From IMG/VR virus record IMGVR_UViG_2636416187_000004, positions 1 through 64,000 of that record: a stretch of DNA of 64,000 nt, one strand, 5' to 3'. Each line of letters opens with the position of its first letter. The stretch's first letter is position 1. The position numbers were made by a program, and so were the translations under genes. The notes beneath the pieces are model-generated. The model saw only the letters and a list, made by a program, of their open reading frames with translations. It had not been told where the DNA came from and made no database searches. Positions 7,833 through 58,271 of this stretch are shown piece by piece. The DNA is from a virus (Duplodnaviria; Caudoviricetes).

Positions 7833-7937
7833 GGCTGATACCTCGGTGGTGGGGTTGCGTTTATTCGTCAGCACTCGGCGCCGCCTGCTGGTTGCCGTTG
7901 GGCGCAGGGGAGAGTGCTGACGGATAAAGGCGAGGCG

Positions 7938-8028: not shown

Positions 8029-8166
8029 CTAGAACGCGGCGACCCCGGCGGTACATCGCCAGCGCTCCCGGTGTGCACGTTGCGGATCGGTTGGCAGCGC
8101 GATAGAGCAGGGCGGTTCTGGCCGCAAATGCGAAAGCGCTACGCCGATCAGGATGATCAGGAGCAT
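8029..8166 (-). CDS. 45-aa protein with hydrophobic N-terminus
   Basis: GGAG SD, MLLIILIGVAL start. Confidence 0.45.
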   Translation of the reverse strand: MLLIILIGVALSHLRPEPPCSIALPTDPQRAHRERWRCTAGVAAF

Positions 8167-53443: not shown

Positions 53444-53640
53444 GCATCCTCCTTGCGCCGCTGACAGGTGTCACGCAGGCGTTTGCAGTAGTGGTTGAAC
53501 TCGTCAGTGGTGATCGCTCCGTCAGTGAAGAGGCGGGTGATCAGCGCCTGTACCAGCAAGCTGATGTCTTCTTCGCCGGCGGGTGCCGACACTCCATCAA
53601 GCGCTTGATCAATCAGGATGTGAGGGCTCAAAACCCACAC
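53440..53640 (-). CDS. Small phage hypothetical protein
   Basis: Coupled ORF; exact start uncertain. Confidence 0.55.
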   Translation of the reverse strand: MWVLSPHILIDQALDGVSAPAGEEDISLLVQALITRLFTDGAITTDEFNHYCKRLRDTCQRRKEDA

Positions 53641-54032
53641 TCCCGCTCAACGCGATCGCTTTCGCGCTTGGCATCTCGGTACTCGTTGGCGTGCACCGCG
53701 ACCAGGTCGCCGGCGAGCGACCGAACGATCTGCGGATCACCGCCGACGGCTTCGATGGCCCAGGTGTGCAGAATCCCGCCGTCTTTCCGCCTGATCAGCT
53801 CGATCAAAATCTTCTCGATGTACCGATCAGGATCCGGGTTCGCGGCCATGTGATCCGCCAGCGCCTGCGGTAAGTGGTCGGCGCTGACCAGGACCTTGCT
53901 TCGGCCTACCGGATTTGGTGCCTCGACGTGGCGCCGATAAAGCAGATCGTCGACCGATTCGGCCAGCCATTCCTGACCTGCCTCTGTTTCGAGAAAGTCG
54001 TCTTCCGGGATGGGCTTGCGTAGAGCTGACAT
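53628..54032 (-). CDS. Phage hypothetical protein
   Basis: GGAG SD before ATG 54032. Confidence 0.65.
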   Translation of the reverse strand: MSALRKPIPEDDFLETEAGQEWLAESVDDLLYRRHVEAPNPVGRSKVLVSADHLPQALADHMAANPDPDRYIEKILIELIRRKDGGILHTWAIEAVGGDPQIVRSLAGDLVAVHANEYRDAKRESDRVERECGF

Positions 54033-54212
54033 GGTCGTCTCCAGGGTGGCGGGGTGTTGATCCAACAAAACTCGGATGCACTCATCCGCTCCGCTGGTTG
54101 CCGTTGGGCGCGGAGGGGAGTGCATCCGAGTGGTGTTGATTAGGTGGGGGAAGCTGATCTTTTTGTATCGGCTGCCGATAAGGCACTGAGATTATTTAAG
54201 GATGATTCATCT

Positions 54213-54548
54213 ATGCGTTTGATTTCGAAAAGCGCCTGTCTGGTTGCTTGCTTTGCGCTCAGTAATTTTGGACAAGCCTTAGCGGCCTATACCACCCGCG
54301 ATGTTGCTATCACTGCAGTTGCGATGGAGCGCATGTGCGCCGAATGGAAGCCCGAGATGAATTACTCTTTGCAGAACCTGATGAGCCTGCCTGAGTTCGC
54401 GCCTAACGCCGATCTGAAGAAAGAAATTGCTGAGGTCGAAAATAACCCAGCCTTTCAAGATGAAATCAGGGAGATTCAGATGCGGGGCACAGGGGATGAG
54501 TTGGCGATCAGGAACATATGCCCAAGCTATGCACCGGTAGCCAAGTAG
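54213..54548 (+). CDS. Moron: small exported protein
   Basis: Signal peptide ending QALAA; two Cys in the mature part. Confidence 0.65.
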   Translation: MRLISKSACLVACFALSNFGQALAAYTTRDVAITAVAMERMCAEWKPEMNYSLQNLMSLPEFAPNADLKKEIAEVENNPAFQDEIREIQMRGTGDELAIRNICPSYAPVAK

Positions 54549-54803
54549 TTGCCCAGGCCCGCTACTGGCGACAGCCTGGGTTGTAGCATCAAATTGTCGA
54601 CGTGCATAAAGGTGGCCTACCGCTTTCGGCCGATGCGCGGTGACATCGACGGCCTACTATCCGCTGCCTGTATGTGTGATGGGCGCCGGCCTTCAGGCTT
54701 GCCGCGCCGCGCGAGGCGGATCAGTTCAACTATTTCATGATGGTCATCCTCCAATGCGCGCCGTTGGCATCTTGGCGGGCGCTCGCCGTTCTCAGTCATC
54801 AAA

Positions 54804-54952
54804 TGGTGCAGATGGCCAGGCGCGAGACCGGCGAGAGCGGACCCTTTCGGGACGACCGCTCGGAGGAGCAACCAGCATTATCTGGCGCCTATTAACCTGC
54901 GTTTCTCTAGGGCCGCCGAAGCGTTCAACCCAGCTTTCAACGCCGCATCTGC
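54804..54952 (-). ncRNA. Putative tRNA-shaped non-coding RNA (149 nt)
   Basis: 7-bp GCAGATG/CATCTGC stem plus ACCA, D-like and T-like arms; folded by eye. Confidence 0.45.
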
Positions 54953-55070
54953 TTGCCGGTTACGTCTCCGGCGCGGGCTTTACCGCCGTGGTGCTTGTTG
55001 CTGGCTTGATTGCGCGCAAGCTACCCCGCGTTGATGCAGGTGGGCGGTTATAGGCCGCAGTTTCGTCCGC

Positions 55071-55202
55071 ATCGGGGTGTGATCTGGCGGCATCGGTGCC
55101 CGCTTGCCCTTGCTGTGGCTCTACGCTTCACAGGCCTCACAGCCTCCCCGTCGCTGACAGGTCGGGACGCCGACGGCAGTTGCCGCCAGATCACACCCCG
55201 AT
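55071..55202. repeat. Perfect 22-bp inverted repeat enclosing 88 bp
   Basis: ATCGGGGTGTGATCTGGCGGCA / TGCCGCCAGATCACACCCCGAT. Confidence 0.85.
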
Positions 55203-55258
55203 ACGCTCTCATAGAGAGGATCGGGCAGTTAACGACAGGCTGTCGTGGCGCTGGTTGT

Positions 55259-55468
55259 TTAGTGCTTAAGCGTGCCGCGCCCGAAAGGTTTGAAGCAGCA
55301 GGCGCAAACTGCGACGCCTGTCTCTTGCTCAATTTCGATGCTGCGTGCAGCTCTACGATAGGCATCTCCGGAAACGCCGGCGCGCTCAGCTTCCTCCGCT
55401 ACCTTTAGCCACTGTGCAATTGCCGGATGTGGCACTGCCTTTTCGGCCAGGTTAAATTCGATTTGCAT
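55259..55468 (-). CDS. Small phage hypothetical protein
   Basis: AGGA SD; CACC motif. Confidence 0.55.
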   Translation of the reverse strand: MQIEFNLAEKAVPHPAIAQWLKVAEEAERAGVSGDAYRRAARSIEIEQETGVAVCACCFKPFGRGTLKH

Positions 55469-55528
55469 CGTCCTACCCTCGGTTGATTTCCCGTCTGGCC
55501 CTGTCGCCAAGGCCAGCCAGTGAAATCG

Positions 55529-55714
55529 TCATGCAGCAGCCTTGCAGTCAGCCGCAGTCATGCGGTGCCCGTCTTCCAGCTCAACCACGCACACGCCGTT
55601 GGTGTAGCCACGTTCCGCGTTGATCCGGTTGGCCTCGCGGATGCATTTGCCCAGGTCTTTGTCGGTGAATACGTGCCGCTCGCCGCGAAGAGTGATTCGA
55701 AGGACCTTGTTCAT
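55529..55714 (-). CDS. Small phage hypothetical protein
   Basis: GGAGG SD; coupled. Confidence 0.6.
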   Translation of the reverse strand: MNKVLRITLRGERHVFTDKDLGKCIREANRINAERGYTNGVCVVELEDGHRMTAADCKAAA

Positions 55715-55929
55715 GCCGCCTCCAAAGCTTGCTGAGCCAACAGCTCAGTCACAGCCTCGTCCGGGGTGCAGCCGTCGGCGTAGAAGTCATGTAGGTCGCT
55801 TTCTTCCTGCGAGCCCAAGGCGACTTGGTGGCCGAGCAGTTGGGATGCCTTGTTGATCCAGCGGTAGTAGGTGCGCTCTTCAGCGTCGGCGCGGCATTCA
55901 TCAGCCGCCATGGTTGCCATGTTGAACAT
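55711..55929 (-). CDS. Small phage hypothetical protein, first pL gene
   Basis: GGAGG SD after a conserved hairpin. Confidence 0.6.
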   Translation of the reverse strand: MFNMATMAADECRADAEERTYYRWINKASQLLGHQVALGSQEESDLHDFYADGCTPDEAVTELLAQQALEAA

Positions 55930-56201
55930 CGTGAATCCCTCCGGTTGTTTTCCCAATGCACCCGTCACCAGGTGCATCAGTGAAAAATTCCGTGTTTCTA
56001 TCCGCCCCATGCTCGGCGCCGCGGTTTCCCCACCTGGCCGGCGTCACACATTTCGTGTTCGGTGTTCTTCGCCGGCTGGCTTGCATGGTTTGGCGTCCTC
56101 CCATATGGGGAGTCCGGCAGGTTCCAGAGCCTGCATGGGGATCGAAGTTTGTGTTTCGCGCTATGCCCGTTTCCGGGGATCGATCCGCGAAGATTCCTGA
56201 C

Positions 56202-56213
56202 TGTTAAAGAGCG
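56202..56213 (-). promoter_or_regulatory. boxA antitermination element (nutL-like)
   Basis: CGCTCTTTAACA consensus on the minus strand about 50 nt after pL. Confidence 0.7.
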
Positions 56214-56266
56214 GCGGATCTCTTGAGGCCCTTCGCAGTAGCTGTGTGTCGCTGCGATGGAGTAAA

Positions 56267-56309
56267 TTTAGCTCAAAGCTAAACATTTGGTCAATAGCTT
56301 TCTGCTAAA
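56267..56309 (-). promoter_or_regulatory. pL/OL of prophage 2
   Basis: TTTAGCTCAAAGCTAAA 56267-83 and AATAGCTTTCTGCTAAA 56293-309; TTGACC on the minus strand. Confidence 0.75.
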
Positions 56310-56466
56310 AAAGTTAGCGTGTGCATATTTCGTTTAGCGGAAAGGCCGTTGGGTGCGTGGTGATTGGAAGATTTCAGGCGCAAAAAAGCCCGCTCTTAGC
56401 GGGCTGGGCAGGGTGCAGGCTGGTATCCTTCAGGGTCACCAATTACGGGCTTTGCGAGCGGTTTAA

Positions 56467-57219
56467 ATGGACTTTTCTGTGTGGATCAGGGTTTTCACTA
56501 TTGGTACGGCGGTAGCTGCAATGGCCGGATGCGACGTTACTAAAGAAATGGCCGTAGAGAAGGGCAAGGATATGGTTGCCTCCGCCCTGAAGGACCCCGA
56601 CTCCGCGAAGTTTCAAGGGGTTTTCATGGTAGAGAACCAAGCCATTGGTGATACGCACTACGGCCTTCTTTGTGGGGAGGTCAATTCTAGGAATTCTTTC
56701 GGCGGATACACCGGATTCCGTCGATTTGTGGCGAATTTCAACTACTCAAAGCAGGGAATTTTCGAGGTTGGCTACGTCACGCTTGAAGAGGGTGTGAATG
56801 CCAAGATCAATAGCAACGGGGTTTCGTACTTTCAAGATATTTACTGGCTAGGGAAGTGCGAGCCAAAACCTGCGCCGAAAAAGATAGAGCAGATAAGCGG
56901 AGAGCTGCCAACCACGACAACGGCAGCCGTGGAGTCAAAGAAAACTACCAAGCCAAGCGCCGCGAAGACCGCGCCAGCTGCCGTGCCAGAGGGCCCTAAA
57001 TGGGCTGTCCAGGTTGCCTCGATGAATGATGCGACACAAGCCGCAAGTCTGCAGAAGAAAATAACGGGAGACGGTTTCTCCTCCTACTCGGTAACGAAGG
57101 ACGGAAAAACGCGAGTCTTTGTTGGTCCTTTCGCGGATCGCGCAAAAGCAGAACGTCAAGCTGAGCTGATTCGGACACAGCAGCTTCTGAAGGGATTCGT
57201 GGTTAGAGTTGAGCAGTAG
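56467..57219 (+). CDS. Lipoprotein: LKDPDSAK/NSFGGY domain fused to a C-terminal SPOR domain
   Basis: MAGC lipobox; WAVQVAS...RVFVGPFADRAKA SPOR pattern. Confidence 0.8.
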   Translation: MDFSVWIRVFTIGTAVAAMAGCDVTKEMAVEKGKDMVASALKDPDSAKFQGVFMVENQAIGDTHYGLLCGEVNSRNSFGGYTGFRRFVANFNYSKQGIFEVGYVTLEEGVNAKINSNGVSYFQDIYWLGKCEPKPAPKKIEQISGELPTTTTAAVESKKTTKPSAAKTAPAAVPEGPKWAVQVASMNDATQAASLQKKITGDGFSSYSVTKDGKTRVFVGPFADRAKAERQAELIRTQQLLKGFVVRVEQ

Positions 57220-57422: not shown

Positions 57423-58157
57423 CTACCTAGCGTACATGCCCCACCAAAAAACGTGACCAATGATGACGATCTGCTCTTCCTGAATATCTTGGAAGGTGTA
57501 GTCCTCATCCGGATGTTCGTCGCGATTGAAGCTTCGCAAGCGTATTCCGGTCGGTATGCGGTAAAGCTGTTTCACCCTCAACTGGCCATTGTGGTTGATC
57601 GCATAGAGATCACCATCAGTAATTTCGCTGACGCTGGTCACGCCGGTGTTTACGCCAACCGTTGCTCCGTCACGTAGAACCGGGAGCATGCTGTTTCCCC
57701 GAACTGTCACGCACTTGGCATTTGAAAACTGAACACCATTTTGACGAAGACTGCGCTTGCCGAAGCGCAAGAATGAATTTGGGCTTTCCTCAACAGTAAA
57801 TCGACCTGAGCCCGCTGCCAGCTCAACCTCCCTCAGAAACGGAACGCAAATCTCATCGTCCTCTACGGGCGTGGCGTCATCCCAAAGGTGAATGTCGCGT
57901 AATTCTGAGTGAGGCTGACGATGGACTGACTCTGCCTGGATCGCATCGTCACGCACGTTATCCAAATACCCCTTCGGCAAATCCTCCGCTGCCTCAATCC
58001 TGCGCGCGAGCTCATCCCCCAAGTTTCTGACAGGGTTCTTCGACAGAATCTGGCTGAGCACCGACGACGATGTTCCCCATTTCTCTGCACATTCTTTTCG
58101 CTTTCTGTCGCCTGCAAGGGCTTCCAGGTTGCGCTTTCTGATCGCGTAAATATCCAT
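57423..58157 (-). CDS. cI: CI-like repressor (HTH and S24) of prophage 2
   Basis: LAAGSG, GNSMLP, RVK; HTH differs from prophage 1. Confidence 0.92.
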   Translation of the reverse strand: MDIYAIRKRNLEALAGDRKRKECAEKWGTSSSVLSQILSKNPVRNLGDELARRIEAAEDLPKGYLDNVRDDAIQAESVHRQPHSELRDIHLWDDATPVEDDEICVPFLREVELAAGSGRFTVEESPNSFLRFGKRSLRQNGVQFSNAKCVTVRGNSMLPVLRDGATVGVNTGVTSVSEITDGDLYAINHNGQLRVKQLYRIPTGIRLRSFNRDEHPDEDYTFQDIQEEQIVIIGHVFWWGMYAR

Positions 58158-58168
58158 GCGCTAATGAT

Positions 58169-58243
58169 TGCAGCTCTTAGCTAAATGATAAATATTCTCC
58201 GAGCTAAACTCTTGCTTGCTAAACAATTTAGCTAGAGGCTAAA
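58169..58243. promoter_or_regulatory. OR of prophage 2
   Basis: Repeated GCTAAA half-sites; full TTTAGCTAGAGGCTAAA at 58227-58243. Confidence 0.75.
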
Positions 58244-58271
58244 CTCTGTGCGAGACAAACGGAGAATACCC

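Follow-up and report, generated by a model that had tools for sequence, protein, structure and literature searches.

We analysed a 64,000-nt stretch of DNA (positions 1 to 64,000 of IMG/VR virus record IMGVR_UViG_2636416187_000004; hereafter the window), which corresponds to C26:206542-270541 of a 6.09-Mb genome and whose region of interest is a lambdoid Pseudomonas prophage. Our main finding is that positions 54549-55258 of this window probably correspond to a non-coding tail, proximal to the promoter, of a leftward early transcript under repressor control. This tail is made up of three structured RNA modules (A, B and C) that we infer to be cut out of the transcript. The stretch carries no coding signature, its modules fold and covary as minus-sense RNAs, and among relatives they are present or absent independently while their order is fixed. 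A preliminary description had taken the stretch for a cluster of phage non-coding RNAs. The non-coding nature, the covarying structure, the strand of the leftward early operon and the modularity of this reading have stood, whereas a tRNA-like element and the statement that the open reading frames (ORFs) lack Shine-Dalgarno sites have not. The stretch is divided as follows:

54549-54730, minus strand: body of module A (alignment A1), in which a central domain that is nearly invariant lies between a 5' hairpin and the terminal hairpin
54552-54580, minus strand: terminal hairpin of module A (helix 7), an 8-bp covarying stem with the 13-nt loop GUCGCCAGUAGCG
54731-54739, minus strand: mini-ORF ATG AAA TAG behind a Shine-Dalgarno site, at the 5' border of module A
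54746-54807, minus strand: leader upstream of module A, one of several alternative upstream pieces, with Shine-Dalgarno site GGAGGA at 54748-54753
54808-54952, minus strand: module B, a 145-nt five-helix RNA with the 7-bp closing stem GCAGAUG/CAUCUGC (alignment A4)
54953-55032, minus strand: variable spacer separating module C from module B; it contains the hairpin CCGG/CCGG (54956-54971) and shows many 1-nt insertions or deletions (indels) in the contig of one relative
55029-55258, minus strand: module C, a clamped cassette of upstream hairpin, linker, hairpin P1, clamp, variable core and 3' hairpin, with conserved flanks and a variable middle

Absence of a coding signature

The earlier statement that 54549-55258 contains no credible gene was borne out: the stretch is bounded by the stops of two real genes and shows no coding signature. 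Eight ORFs of 37-137 aa lie inside it, none of which matched a PHROG or Pfam family, bar one PHROG holin stretch at E = 0.06. Coding potential was assessed by counting distinct single-base codon variants relative to the window sequence in six frames, the same script being applied to control genes. In all six frames the synonymous fraction amounted to 0.27-0.33 for module A and to 0.19-0.33 for module B (the latter from alignment A2, which includes three mis-trimmed rows, L008, L009 and L107, and also underlies the strand pairing percentages of module B given below), as compared to 0.82 (55259-55468) and 0.72 in frame 0 of the control genes flanking the stretch, for which the other frames gave 0.07-0.17. 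Neither module exhibits the synonymous excess in one frame, with that frame kept, by which a protein gene is recognised. Variation is not three-periodic, relatives differ by many 1-nt gaps, and at two places the lengths of the two main classes of module A are offset by +1 and -2 nt, which breaks the frame. Long stop-free runs are present in the stretch, as expected at this GC content.

Covariation in modules A and B

Module A was studied in alignment A1, comprising 63 distinct sequences (54745-54549, minus-sense) and 37 pairs. Standard pairs occupy 98.1% of the 2330 cells, compared with 27-37% in slid controls, and 11 pairs are changed on both sides, as compared to 4.2 ± 0.9 in shuffles (0/500 reaching this value). 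Two stems that had been proposed before were recovered here. The stem CCCAGGC/GCCTGGG at 54552-54580 covaries strongly among relatives, the conserved loop GUCGCCAGUAGCG sitting on at least eight different stem sequences, and CGATG/CATCG at ~54631-54650 forms helix 5 of module A, invariant in 63/63 sequences.

For module B, covariation was determined from the corrected alignment A4 (26 sequences, 42 pairs in five arms), in which 99.0% of cells are paired and 12 pairs are changed on both sides, compared with 2.8 ± 1.0 in shuffles and again 0/500; the three mis-trimmed rows were excluded from the fold energies. The 7-bp closing stem is followed by a 2-nt linker, three arms and a 5-bp arm that abuts the 3' strand of the closing stem. 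One of the arms is capped by C(UUCG)G and another one by C(GAAA)G. As modelled, this layout resembles that of a long-arm tRNA, while no tRNA model accepts module B, and it may be this module that had previously been called tRNA-like. In the spacer between modules C and B, the proposed hairpin was found as CCGG/CCGG at 54956-54971, with CUGG/CCAG variants in relatives. A second proposed stem, CGCGGG/CCCGCG (54972-55030), could not be established as a conserved helix, the spacer being variable and rich in indels in relatives.

The modules fold as minus-sense RNAs

G-U pairs and folding energies favour a minus-sense RNA. In structures predicted on the minus-sense alignments, module A pairs to 98.1% in the minus sense (253 G-U pairs) and to 87.7% in the plus sense (11 G-U pairs), and module B to 98.4% (147) as compared to 85.3% (4). 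Independent consensus folds yielded -44.3 (minus) versus -34.6 (plus) kcal/mol for module A and -55.8 versus -48.0 kcal/mol for module B, and the UUCG and GAAA loops exist in the minus sense only. One-sided changes in 129 oriented clamps of module C produced 22 G-U and 7 A-C pairs, a count biased by loci that had partly been fetched with patterns fixing one arm. The minus strand is also the strand of all neighbouring early genes, and the flanking genes and the repressor gene lie on the strand of the RNA modules here as well as in the annotated phages Aurca01, PseuP_224 and MD8.

Module C is a clamped cassette with an exchangeable core

Module C combines strongly conserved flanks with a core that differs between relatives. 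Its parts are, in RNA sense from 5' to 3':

55232-55246, minus strand: hairpin P0, ACGACAG-C-CUGUCGU, just past the stop of the upstream gene
55206-55218, minus strand: hairpin P1, CUCUC-UAU-GAGAG, nearly invariant in relatives
55181-55205, minus strand: 5' arm of the clamp, from inverted repeat and fold
55093-55180, minus strand: variable core, 88 nt between the 25-nt arms, of a class with 8 members among 115 loci
55068-55092, minus strand: 3' arm of the clamp, from inverted repeat and fold
55033-55073, minus strand: 3' hairpin, GAUGC...GCAUC closing an inner GCGG/CCGC, which overlaps the outer end of the clamp

The clamp corresponds to an inverted repeat that had been noted as 22 bp long; it is present, its length being 25 nt (55068-55092 with 55181-55205, 96% complementary). 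On the minus-sense RNA it consists of 24 Watson-Crick pairs and one U-G pair, as the single mismatch becomes a wobble. To avoid circularity, conservation of the clamp was tested by anchoring on the linker AACUGCCCGAUCC between P0 and P1 alone, an independent 14-mer, which gave 180 distinct downstream segments. In 112 of the 180 segments, 15 bp or more (median 19) pair without interruption around an enclosed 28-173 nt, compared with 1/180 in shuffles. The outer 8 bp of the clamp, CGCAUCGG/CCGAUGCG, are fixed, whereas the inner part falls into at least ten sequence groups, each of which is perfectly complementary. With 25 bp here and a median of 19 in the 180 relatives, the stem has the size of RNase III substrates (~20 bp of uninterrupted duplex).

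The hairpin P0 is kept in relatives with other sequences, e.g. GCGUCAG/CUGACG or GUUGUAAAC/GUUUACAAC. P1 is flanked by CCCGAU and AUCGGG, resulting in an inverted repeat of 55197-55209 with 55213-55225, and judging from these letters CCCGAU and AUCGGG could pair with each other in place of the clamp. At the other end, 71 distinct 3' flanks were compared, 40 of which have the GAUGC/GCAUC closure, the inner hairpins enclosed by it being of at least four unrelated kinds; this count was made by script, the 3' flanks being too unrelated for an alignment consensus (A3). Mutually exclusive helices, i.e. CCCGAU/AUCGGG and GAUGC/GCAUC on the one hand and the clamp on the other, would explain the invariance of these letters.

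The cores fall into 23 classes among 77 units and into 27 classes among 115 loci. They are predicted to adopt multi-helix folds, often with a 5-bp hairpin stacked on the 3' strand of the clamp, and in the largest class pairs are kept via compensated changes, e.g. from G-C to U-A in the 3' hairpin. The window's own core has no similarity elsewhere in its host genome, and copying of cores from the host was rejected on this ground.

A relative of module C is located in phage MD8 of P. aeruginosa (NC_031091; locus L223) at 2318-2541, within an unannotated 224-bp gap between gp48 (ParB-like) and gp49. Its clamp differs in sequence and is fully paired, with two compensated changes, and its core has the same GCCGG...CCGGC 3' hairpin. 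The clamp arms TGTGATCT and AGATCACA of the window correspond to the two halves of the CRP consensus. A split CRP/Vfr site was rejected, as other clamp variants and MD8 do not have those letters and yet keep the pairing.

A start-stop mini-ORF precedes module A

In contrast to the earlier view of the ORFs as devoid of Shine-Dalgarno sites, the minus strand carries a strong site, GGAGGA (54748-54753), followed by ATG AAA TAG (54739-54731). A Shine-Dalgarno site, an ATG, 0-3 codons and a stop were found in 60 of 64 distinct module A 5' regions, the variants being ATGAAGTAG (20), ATGTAA (18), ATGAAATAG (13), ATGTAG (6), ATGTGA (2) and ATGCACCAGTAA (1). This is the sequence signature of start-stop ORFs or minigenes. 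Directly after the ATG, TAA (18), TAG (6) and TGA (2) interchange at one position, which argues that the stop itself is kept by selection.

Two complementarities involving modules A and B were observed in addition. A 48-bp piece at 55480-55527 between two early genes (U48) is 93-100% identical in dozens of genomes despite differing flanking genes. In the minus sense it has the hairpin CUGGCC-UUGGCGACAG-GGCCAG, whose loop is complementary to the terminal-hairpin loop of module A ~930 nt downstream. There are just two exact copies of the 9-mer CTGTCGCCA in the 64-kb window, located at 54566 and 55501 and inverted with respect to each other, and the hairpin at 55487-55511 (9-nt match at 55501-55509) and the terminal hairpin of module A are candidates for a loop-loop pairing. 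No compensating change was found in 21 co-occurring pairs; one change is still compatible with a wobble. Moreover, the sequence CUCCUCC between two arms of module B (54861-54867) is complementary to the GGAGGA of the mini-ORF ~110 nt downstream. Sequestration of this Shine-Dalgarno site by module B is possible; modules B and A rarely co-occur, and the match may be due to chance.

Modularity and distribution

When 54100-55600 was used for searching, 159 of 401 genus genomes including the own one (158 of 400 without it) gave matches, flanking gene pieces included; this count takes in G151 and G099, from neither of which a locus was fetched. The matches fall in separate blocks, namely 54548-54797 (A), 54805-55073 (B) and 55028-55263 (C). 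The C block has very conserved ends and a variable middle, and module cores are 78-100% identical across species. Two short pieces, 55480-55527 and 54100-54136, are nearly identical in many genomes. Pattern scans of IMG/VR contributed 94, 25, 63 and at least 120 further stretches.

Across 220 loci, modules A, B and C are present or absent independently, while the order U48 > C > B > A > downstream hairpin is kept on one strand; exceptions are five loci of mixed orientation and one out of order. Thus, syntenic comparison agrees with the previous suggestion that modules are gained and lost as units. The window is a rare case in that it carries all three modules, and in most relatives A or C directly abuts the downstream hairpin. 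Its own genome contains the stretch only once, and none of the modules was found there a second time, the rightward operon included. A repeat derived from a miniature inverted-repeat transposable element or an insertion sequence was rejected, given the single copy and the same operon position in relatives.

An exact 23-mer of module C occurs in 25 contigs of a 185,579-species collection, all of them Pseudomonas, and when 300 more genomes of the order, representing 134 genera, were searched at BLAST level, one marginal 31-nt match was returned; both searches detect near-identical DNA only. All named related records are Pseudomonas or Pseudomonas phages. In the carriers Aurca01, PseuP_224, Orisa01-03, Orimi01 and MD8, the corresponding segments are either gaps in the annotation or have hypothetical ORFs placed across them. 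Literature searches returned no description of these elements, and in a term-level check covering the papers without their supplements, the genome papers of MD8 (PMC8508860) and PseuP_224 (PMC10305613) made no mention of them. A preprint on Pas small RNAs (10.64898/2026.05.13.724894) concerns, in the part considered here, small RNAs of E. coli prophages, which are unrelated.

Position in the leftward early operon

The elements that define the genetic context of the stretch are the following:

57423-58157, minus strand: S24/CI-type repressor gene, on the same strand as the flanking genes
56265-56294, minus strand: promoter-like site of the leftward early operon (56294-56265), overlapped by TTTAGC/GCTAAA palindromes
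55259-55468, minus strand: upstream gene, 70 aa, PHROG 16252 (E 3e-32), whose stop is one border of the gene-free stretch
54213-54548, plus strand: converging gene, 111 aa, signal-peptide-like N-terminus, whose stop is the other border of the gene-free stretch
54062-54131, minus strand: terminator-like long hairpin with the U-run UUUUGUUG, 62-nt span, closing the promoter-proximal segment that holds the RNA modules

Left of the repressor gene and on the same strand, small early genes are followed by exonuclease, Gam-like and methylase genes. The sigma-70-like site at 56294-56265 is the only one on the minus strand in 53900-56600, and the TTTAGC/GCTAAA palindromes (56258-56320) recur in the divergent rightward promoter region right of the repressor gene (58165-58250). 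Found in both divergent promoter regions, these palindromes are probably the operators of the repressor, and on the basis of sequence 56265-56294 would be the promoter, together with operators, of the leftward early operon. Immediately upstream of this site, at 56405-56387, the minus strand has a strong terminator. Three small genes (55711-56010, 55529-55714 and 55259-55468) lie between the promoter-like site and the RNA stretch, and a scan for promoters and terminators found no such site within 54549-55258.

The downstream hairpin (-49.2 kcal/mol, z -7.65) was matched by the terminator scan and is conserved in relatives; with its G+C-rich stem-loop and the U-run behind it, it is built like an intrinsic terminator. 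Part of its sequence recurs at ~7887-7917 (C26:214428-214458), over 31 nt and with 90% identity. Insertion of the converging gene 54213-54548 between module A and this hairpin was, among the loci seen, found in this prophage only. Its 111-aa product has no Pfam or PHROG family and full-length homologues at 52-62% identity in four other database clusters, and the GC content is ~0.50-0.54 across this gene as compared to 0.60-0.64 in the RNA stretch. The next gene beyond the hairpin is a 165-aa ORF opened by ATG 54125, which sits in the hairpin itself. Its match to PHROG 4801 begins at residue 37, and judging from these positions the true start is probably ATG 54032, behind GGAG, and not ATG 54125.

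Comparison with RNA family models

The tRNA-like element of the preliminary description was not confirmed: no tRNA was detected by ARAGORN in the whole window or by Rfam at E<=1 over 53500-56500 and at E<=10 over 55020-55270, and a tRNA or tmRNA in the window was rejected accordingly. No family at all was returned by Rfam at E<=1 over 53500-56500 or at gathering threshold over the whole window, the C4-type antisense family model being among those unmatched within these scopes. A tRNA was defined by a cloverleaf above the RF00005 threshold of 29 bits. Among relatives, ARAGORN called a tRNA in 0 of 77 C units, some cores of which look like broken tRNAs with a T-arm or a D-arm only. The core of one locus (L088, 11480-11549) reaches 43.2 bits on the Rfam tRNA model; the clamp here encloses an RNA of the tRNA family whose anticodon arm is aberrant. 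In another locus (L112) a tRNA-Met gene (8075-8152) is found ~410 nt downstream of module C on the same strand, in place of B and A.

Proposed release of the modules from the early transcript

In our favoured scenario, the stretch would be transcribed after the three small genes and ahead of the strong terminator-like hairpin, the modules being read from the minus strand. Module C would act as a cassette holder, whose clamp with its fixed outer and covarying inner part surrounds a small structured RNA, entirely different from phage to phage and in some cases tRNA-like, and module A would be a three-domain RNA behind a ribosome-binding site and a start-stop mini-ORF. RNase III would cleave the clamp, and RNase P or RNase E the tRNA-like bodies, so that the modules would be excised from the early transcript. 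Stable small RNAs would result; in addition, the termini of neighbouring mRNA pieces, and with them their stability, would be determined by the cuts, and P0 and P1 would remain to protect the upstream message at its 3' end. In length and regularity of pairing the clamp matches RNase III substrates and is compatible with cleavage, which we propose. Module B and many C cores are likewise compatible, as modelled, with the coaxial closing-stem-plus-hairpin shape recognised by RNase P. The sections of PMC11143913 relevant here list the phage C4 antisense RNA, phage M3 RNA and operon mRNAs as RNase P substrates and also cover T4 tRNA precursors.

Since the core of module C is replaced among phages, we argue that the core itself would be the working part. 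More doubtful, and put forward tentatively, is the idea that module C is an exchange slot, whose fixed clamp would let RNase III release any of dozens of unrelated small RNAs, many of them tRNA mimics, at the start of infection or induction. Turnover of cores would then reflect an arms race, the RNAs acting e.g. as decoys for host nucleases that attack tRNA or RNA, or retuning host translation, and modules B and A would be tRNA-shaped RNAs of fixed function from the same early arsenal. The anti-defence or exclusion role that had been suggested before is pure conjecture.

Several points weigh against released small RNAs or against parts of the evidence for them. The 729-nt minus-sense RNA folds with z = -1.93 and 0/20 shuffles fold as well, which is weak by itself; therefore a single sequence would not carry the claim, and conservation and covariation in relatives are decisive. 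In module A, many both-sided changes stem from one linked haplotype of 17-19 sequences, so independent events are fewer than the cells counted. The pairing percentages favour the minus strand in that the tested structures were predicted on it, and the terminal hairpin of module A is not decisive as to the strand (14 G-U versus 5 A-C). No model recognises the C core of the window itself as tRNA-like. Antisense targets of this core were rejected: its complementarity within the 64 kb comprises one 12-mer and six 11-mers, which is about chance, and no 9-mer complementarity is common to at least half of the loci in any of the six largest core classes. Partner proteins did not emerge either, as the TROVE domain gave 0 matches in the own genome (controls were positive in 2 genomes) and a retron was rejected on the basis that RVT_1 has no match anywhere in the 100% complete genome. 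Relatives of module B and of the C flanks are present in contigs from two size-fractionated RNA libraries of one sample, at word depths of 126.7 and 42.5, as compared to 17.7 and 16.1 for a neighbouring contig over the downstream hairpin in the same two libraries; these were not counted as support, as contigs cannot show transcription, ends or strand. A search of sequencing runs matched only small shares of words. Finally, processing is deduced from shape alone.

Alternative explanations

It is possible, at lower probability, that the modules are purely cis-acting mRNA elements serving processing, stabilisation or read-through control, for instance by retroregulation through RNase III as at lambda sib, by protective 3' hairpins or by a switch before the terminator-like hairpin, without release of any relevant trans-acting RNA and with the C core as a tolerated filler. 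The position of the modules directly upstream of this hairpin fits such a role, and so does the near-invariance of the outer 8 bp of the clamp and of the 5' CCCGAU with its same AUCGGG partner, as expected for two exclusive helices of a switch. Replacement of the C core by unrelated sequence with the flanks kept and the lack of core targets point the same way. However, if the stem alone mattered, short loops would be expected commonly, and the enclosed cores of 28-173 nt form multiple helices. One core class keeps its pairs by the G-C to U-A type of compensation, one slot holds a tRNA-family RNA, and the loops and junctions of modules A and B are conserved beyond the needs of a cleavage site. 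RNA antiterminators of the HK022 put type would suggest a second copy. No module has a second copy in the rightward operon or elsewhere in the genome, and a put-type reading is unsupported.

Action of the conserved pieces as DNA, i.e. as recombination linkers, protein-binding sites or single-stranded DNA hairpins with incidental RNA folds, appears improbable. Short and highly conserved pieces do occur at module borders, as at lambdoid mosaic joints, the 9-mer CTGTCGCCA is found twice and inverted (54566 and 55501), and a perfect inverted repeat could also form a cruciform. Yet stems covary while loops are fixed, UUCG and GNRA loops exist on one strand only, and G-U-type pairs are strongly one-stranded (253 versus 11; 147 versus 4), which is unexpected for sites in double-stranded DNA; single-stranded DNA of the same strand is compatible with these tests. 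Even less credence is given to small proteins that have escaped recognition, encoded by the 84-aa or 105-aa minus-strand ORFs or by the hydrophobic C-terminus of the 137-aa plus-strand ORF. The long stop-free runs in GC-rich DNA, the weak PHROG holin stretch (E = 0.06) and a real Shine-Dalgarno site would speak for them, but no frame has the synonymous excess seen in the control genes, length differences of 1 and 2 nt between relatives break the frames, the ORFs span modules that assort independently, and behind the Shine-Dalgarno site 60/64 variants have a start with a stop 0-3 codons further on. Least probable of all are decaying remnants of genes or tRNA genes devoid of present function. 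This would account for the mosaic appearance of the stretch and for those C cores that resemble broken tRNAs (ARAGORN 0/77), whereas parts of the 1.5-kb query recur in 158/400 genus genomes, module cores are 78-100% identical across species, and pairing at 98-99% with compensated changes is not preserved under decay.

Relation to known systems

DicF of the E. coli prophage Qin is a single short base-pairing RNA with known targets, which is cut from a polycistronic operon transcript by RNase III and RNase E. The modules share with DicF that a non-coding RNA is embedded in an early-type operon of a lambdoid prophage and has no promoter of its own, release by endonucleases being proposed here. 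They differ in forming three larger multi-helix modules with a clamp and exchangeable cores, no Rfam match and no target found. The P4 CI RNA is structured, partly tRNA-shaped and processed from the phage's own early or immunity transcript. In this respect the modules are similar to CI and to C4 of P1 and P7, all of them being structured and partly tRNA-shaped RNAs from the phage's own early or immunity transcript. However, C4 and CI pair with sites on the same transcript, whereas the C core here has neither a shared complementary site nor an Rfam match, and only module A has one candidate loop-loop match, which lacks covariation.

Stems processed by RNase III are known from lambda sib, from sites in T7 early mRNA and from the sequences flanking 16S and 23S rRNA. 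As in these cases, sequences on either side of an enclosed RNA form a long, near-perfect duplex; the clamp differs by its invariant outer 8 bp, a freely covarying inside and 28-173 nt of unrelated structured cores, and its cleavage is predicted. The T4 tRNA cluster carries extra stable RNAs and resembles the stretch as a row of tRNA-shaped RNAs on one early transcript, and in some relatives here the cluster contains, or is adjoined by, a genuine tRNA-family RNA. In contrast to T4, most members here are not tRNAs according to ARAGORN and Rfam, and the host phage is temperate and lambdoid; we know of no T4 counterpart of the clamp. YrlA (RF02553) likewise combines a long stem formed from two ends with a tRNA-like domain. 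A Y RNA was nonetheless rejected, as YrlA gave no match in the window at E<=10 and the genome encodes no TROVE/Rsr protein; in one relative, YrlA reached 17.8 bits as compared to a threshold of 69. Lambda bar minigenes and bacterial start-stop nano-ORFs consist of a ribosome-binding site, an AUG and an early stop. The mini-ORF resembles the bar minigenes by its strong ribosome-binding site, the AUG, the stop after 0-3 codons and its place in a leftward early operon, while its sequence is unrelated and its position is linked to a structured RNA module, whose 5' border it marks.

Each known analogue thus shares one feature and fails on others, and for the combination of clamp, covarying inside and exchangeable core no match was found in Rfam or the literature. 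We consider the modules new RNA families of a known general kind, i.e. structured RNAs embedded in phage operons, with an unusual cassette design.

Significance

The early operons of temperate phages are annotated almost wholly as protein genes. Here, three RNA families supported by covariation and absent from Rfam are located in such an operon, and nearly every copy of module A has a conserved start-stop mini-ORF. The design of a clamp plus exchangeable core points to a strategy by which phages in general might exchange small RNAs. Even with a purely cis-acting role, the modules would govern the cutting and stabilisation of the immediate-early transcript in these phages. Should the RNAs be released and have an activity of their own, they would make up a novel class of early effectors in the phages of a genus that is important for plant, soil and clinical microbiology.

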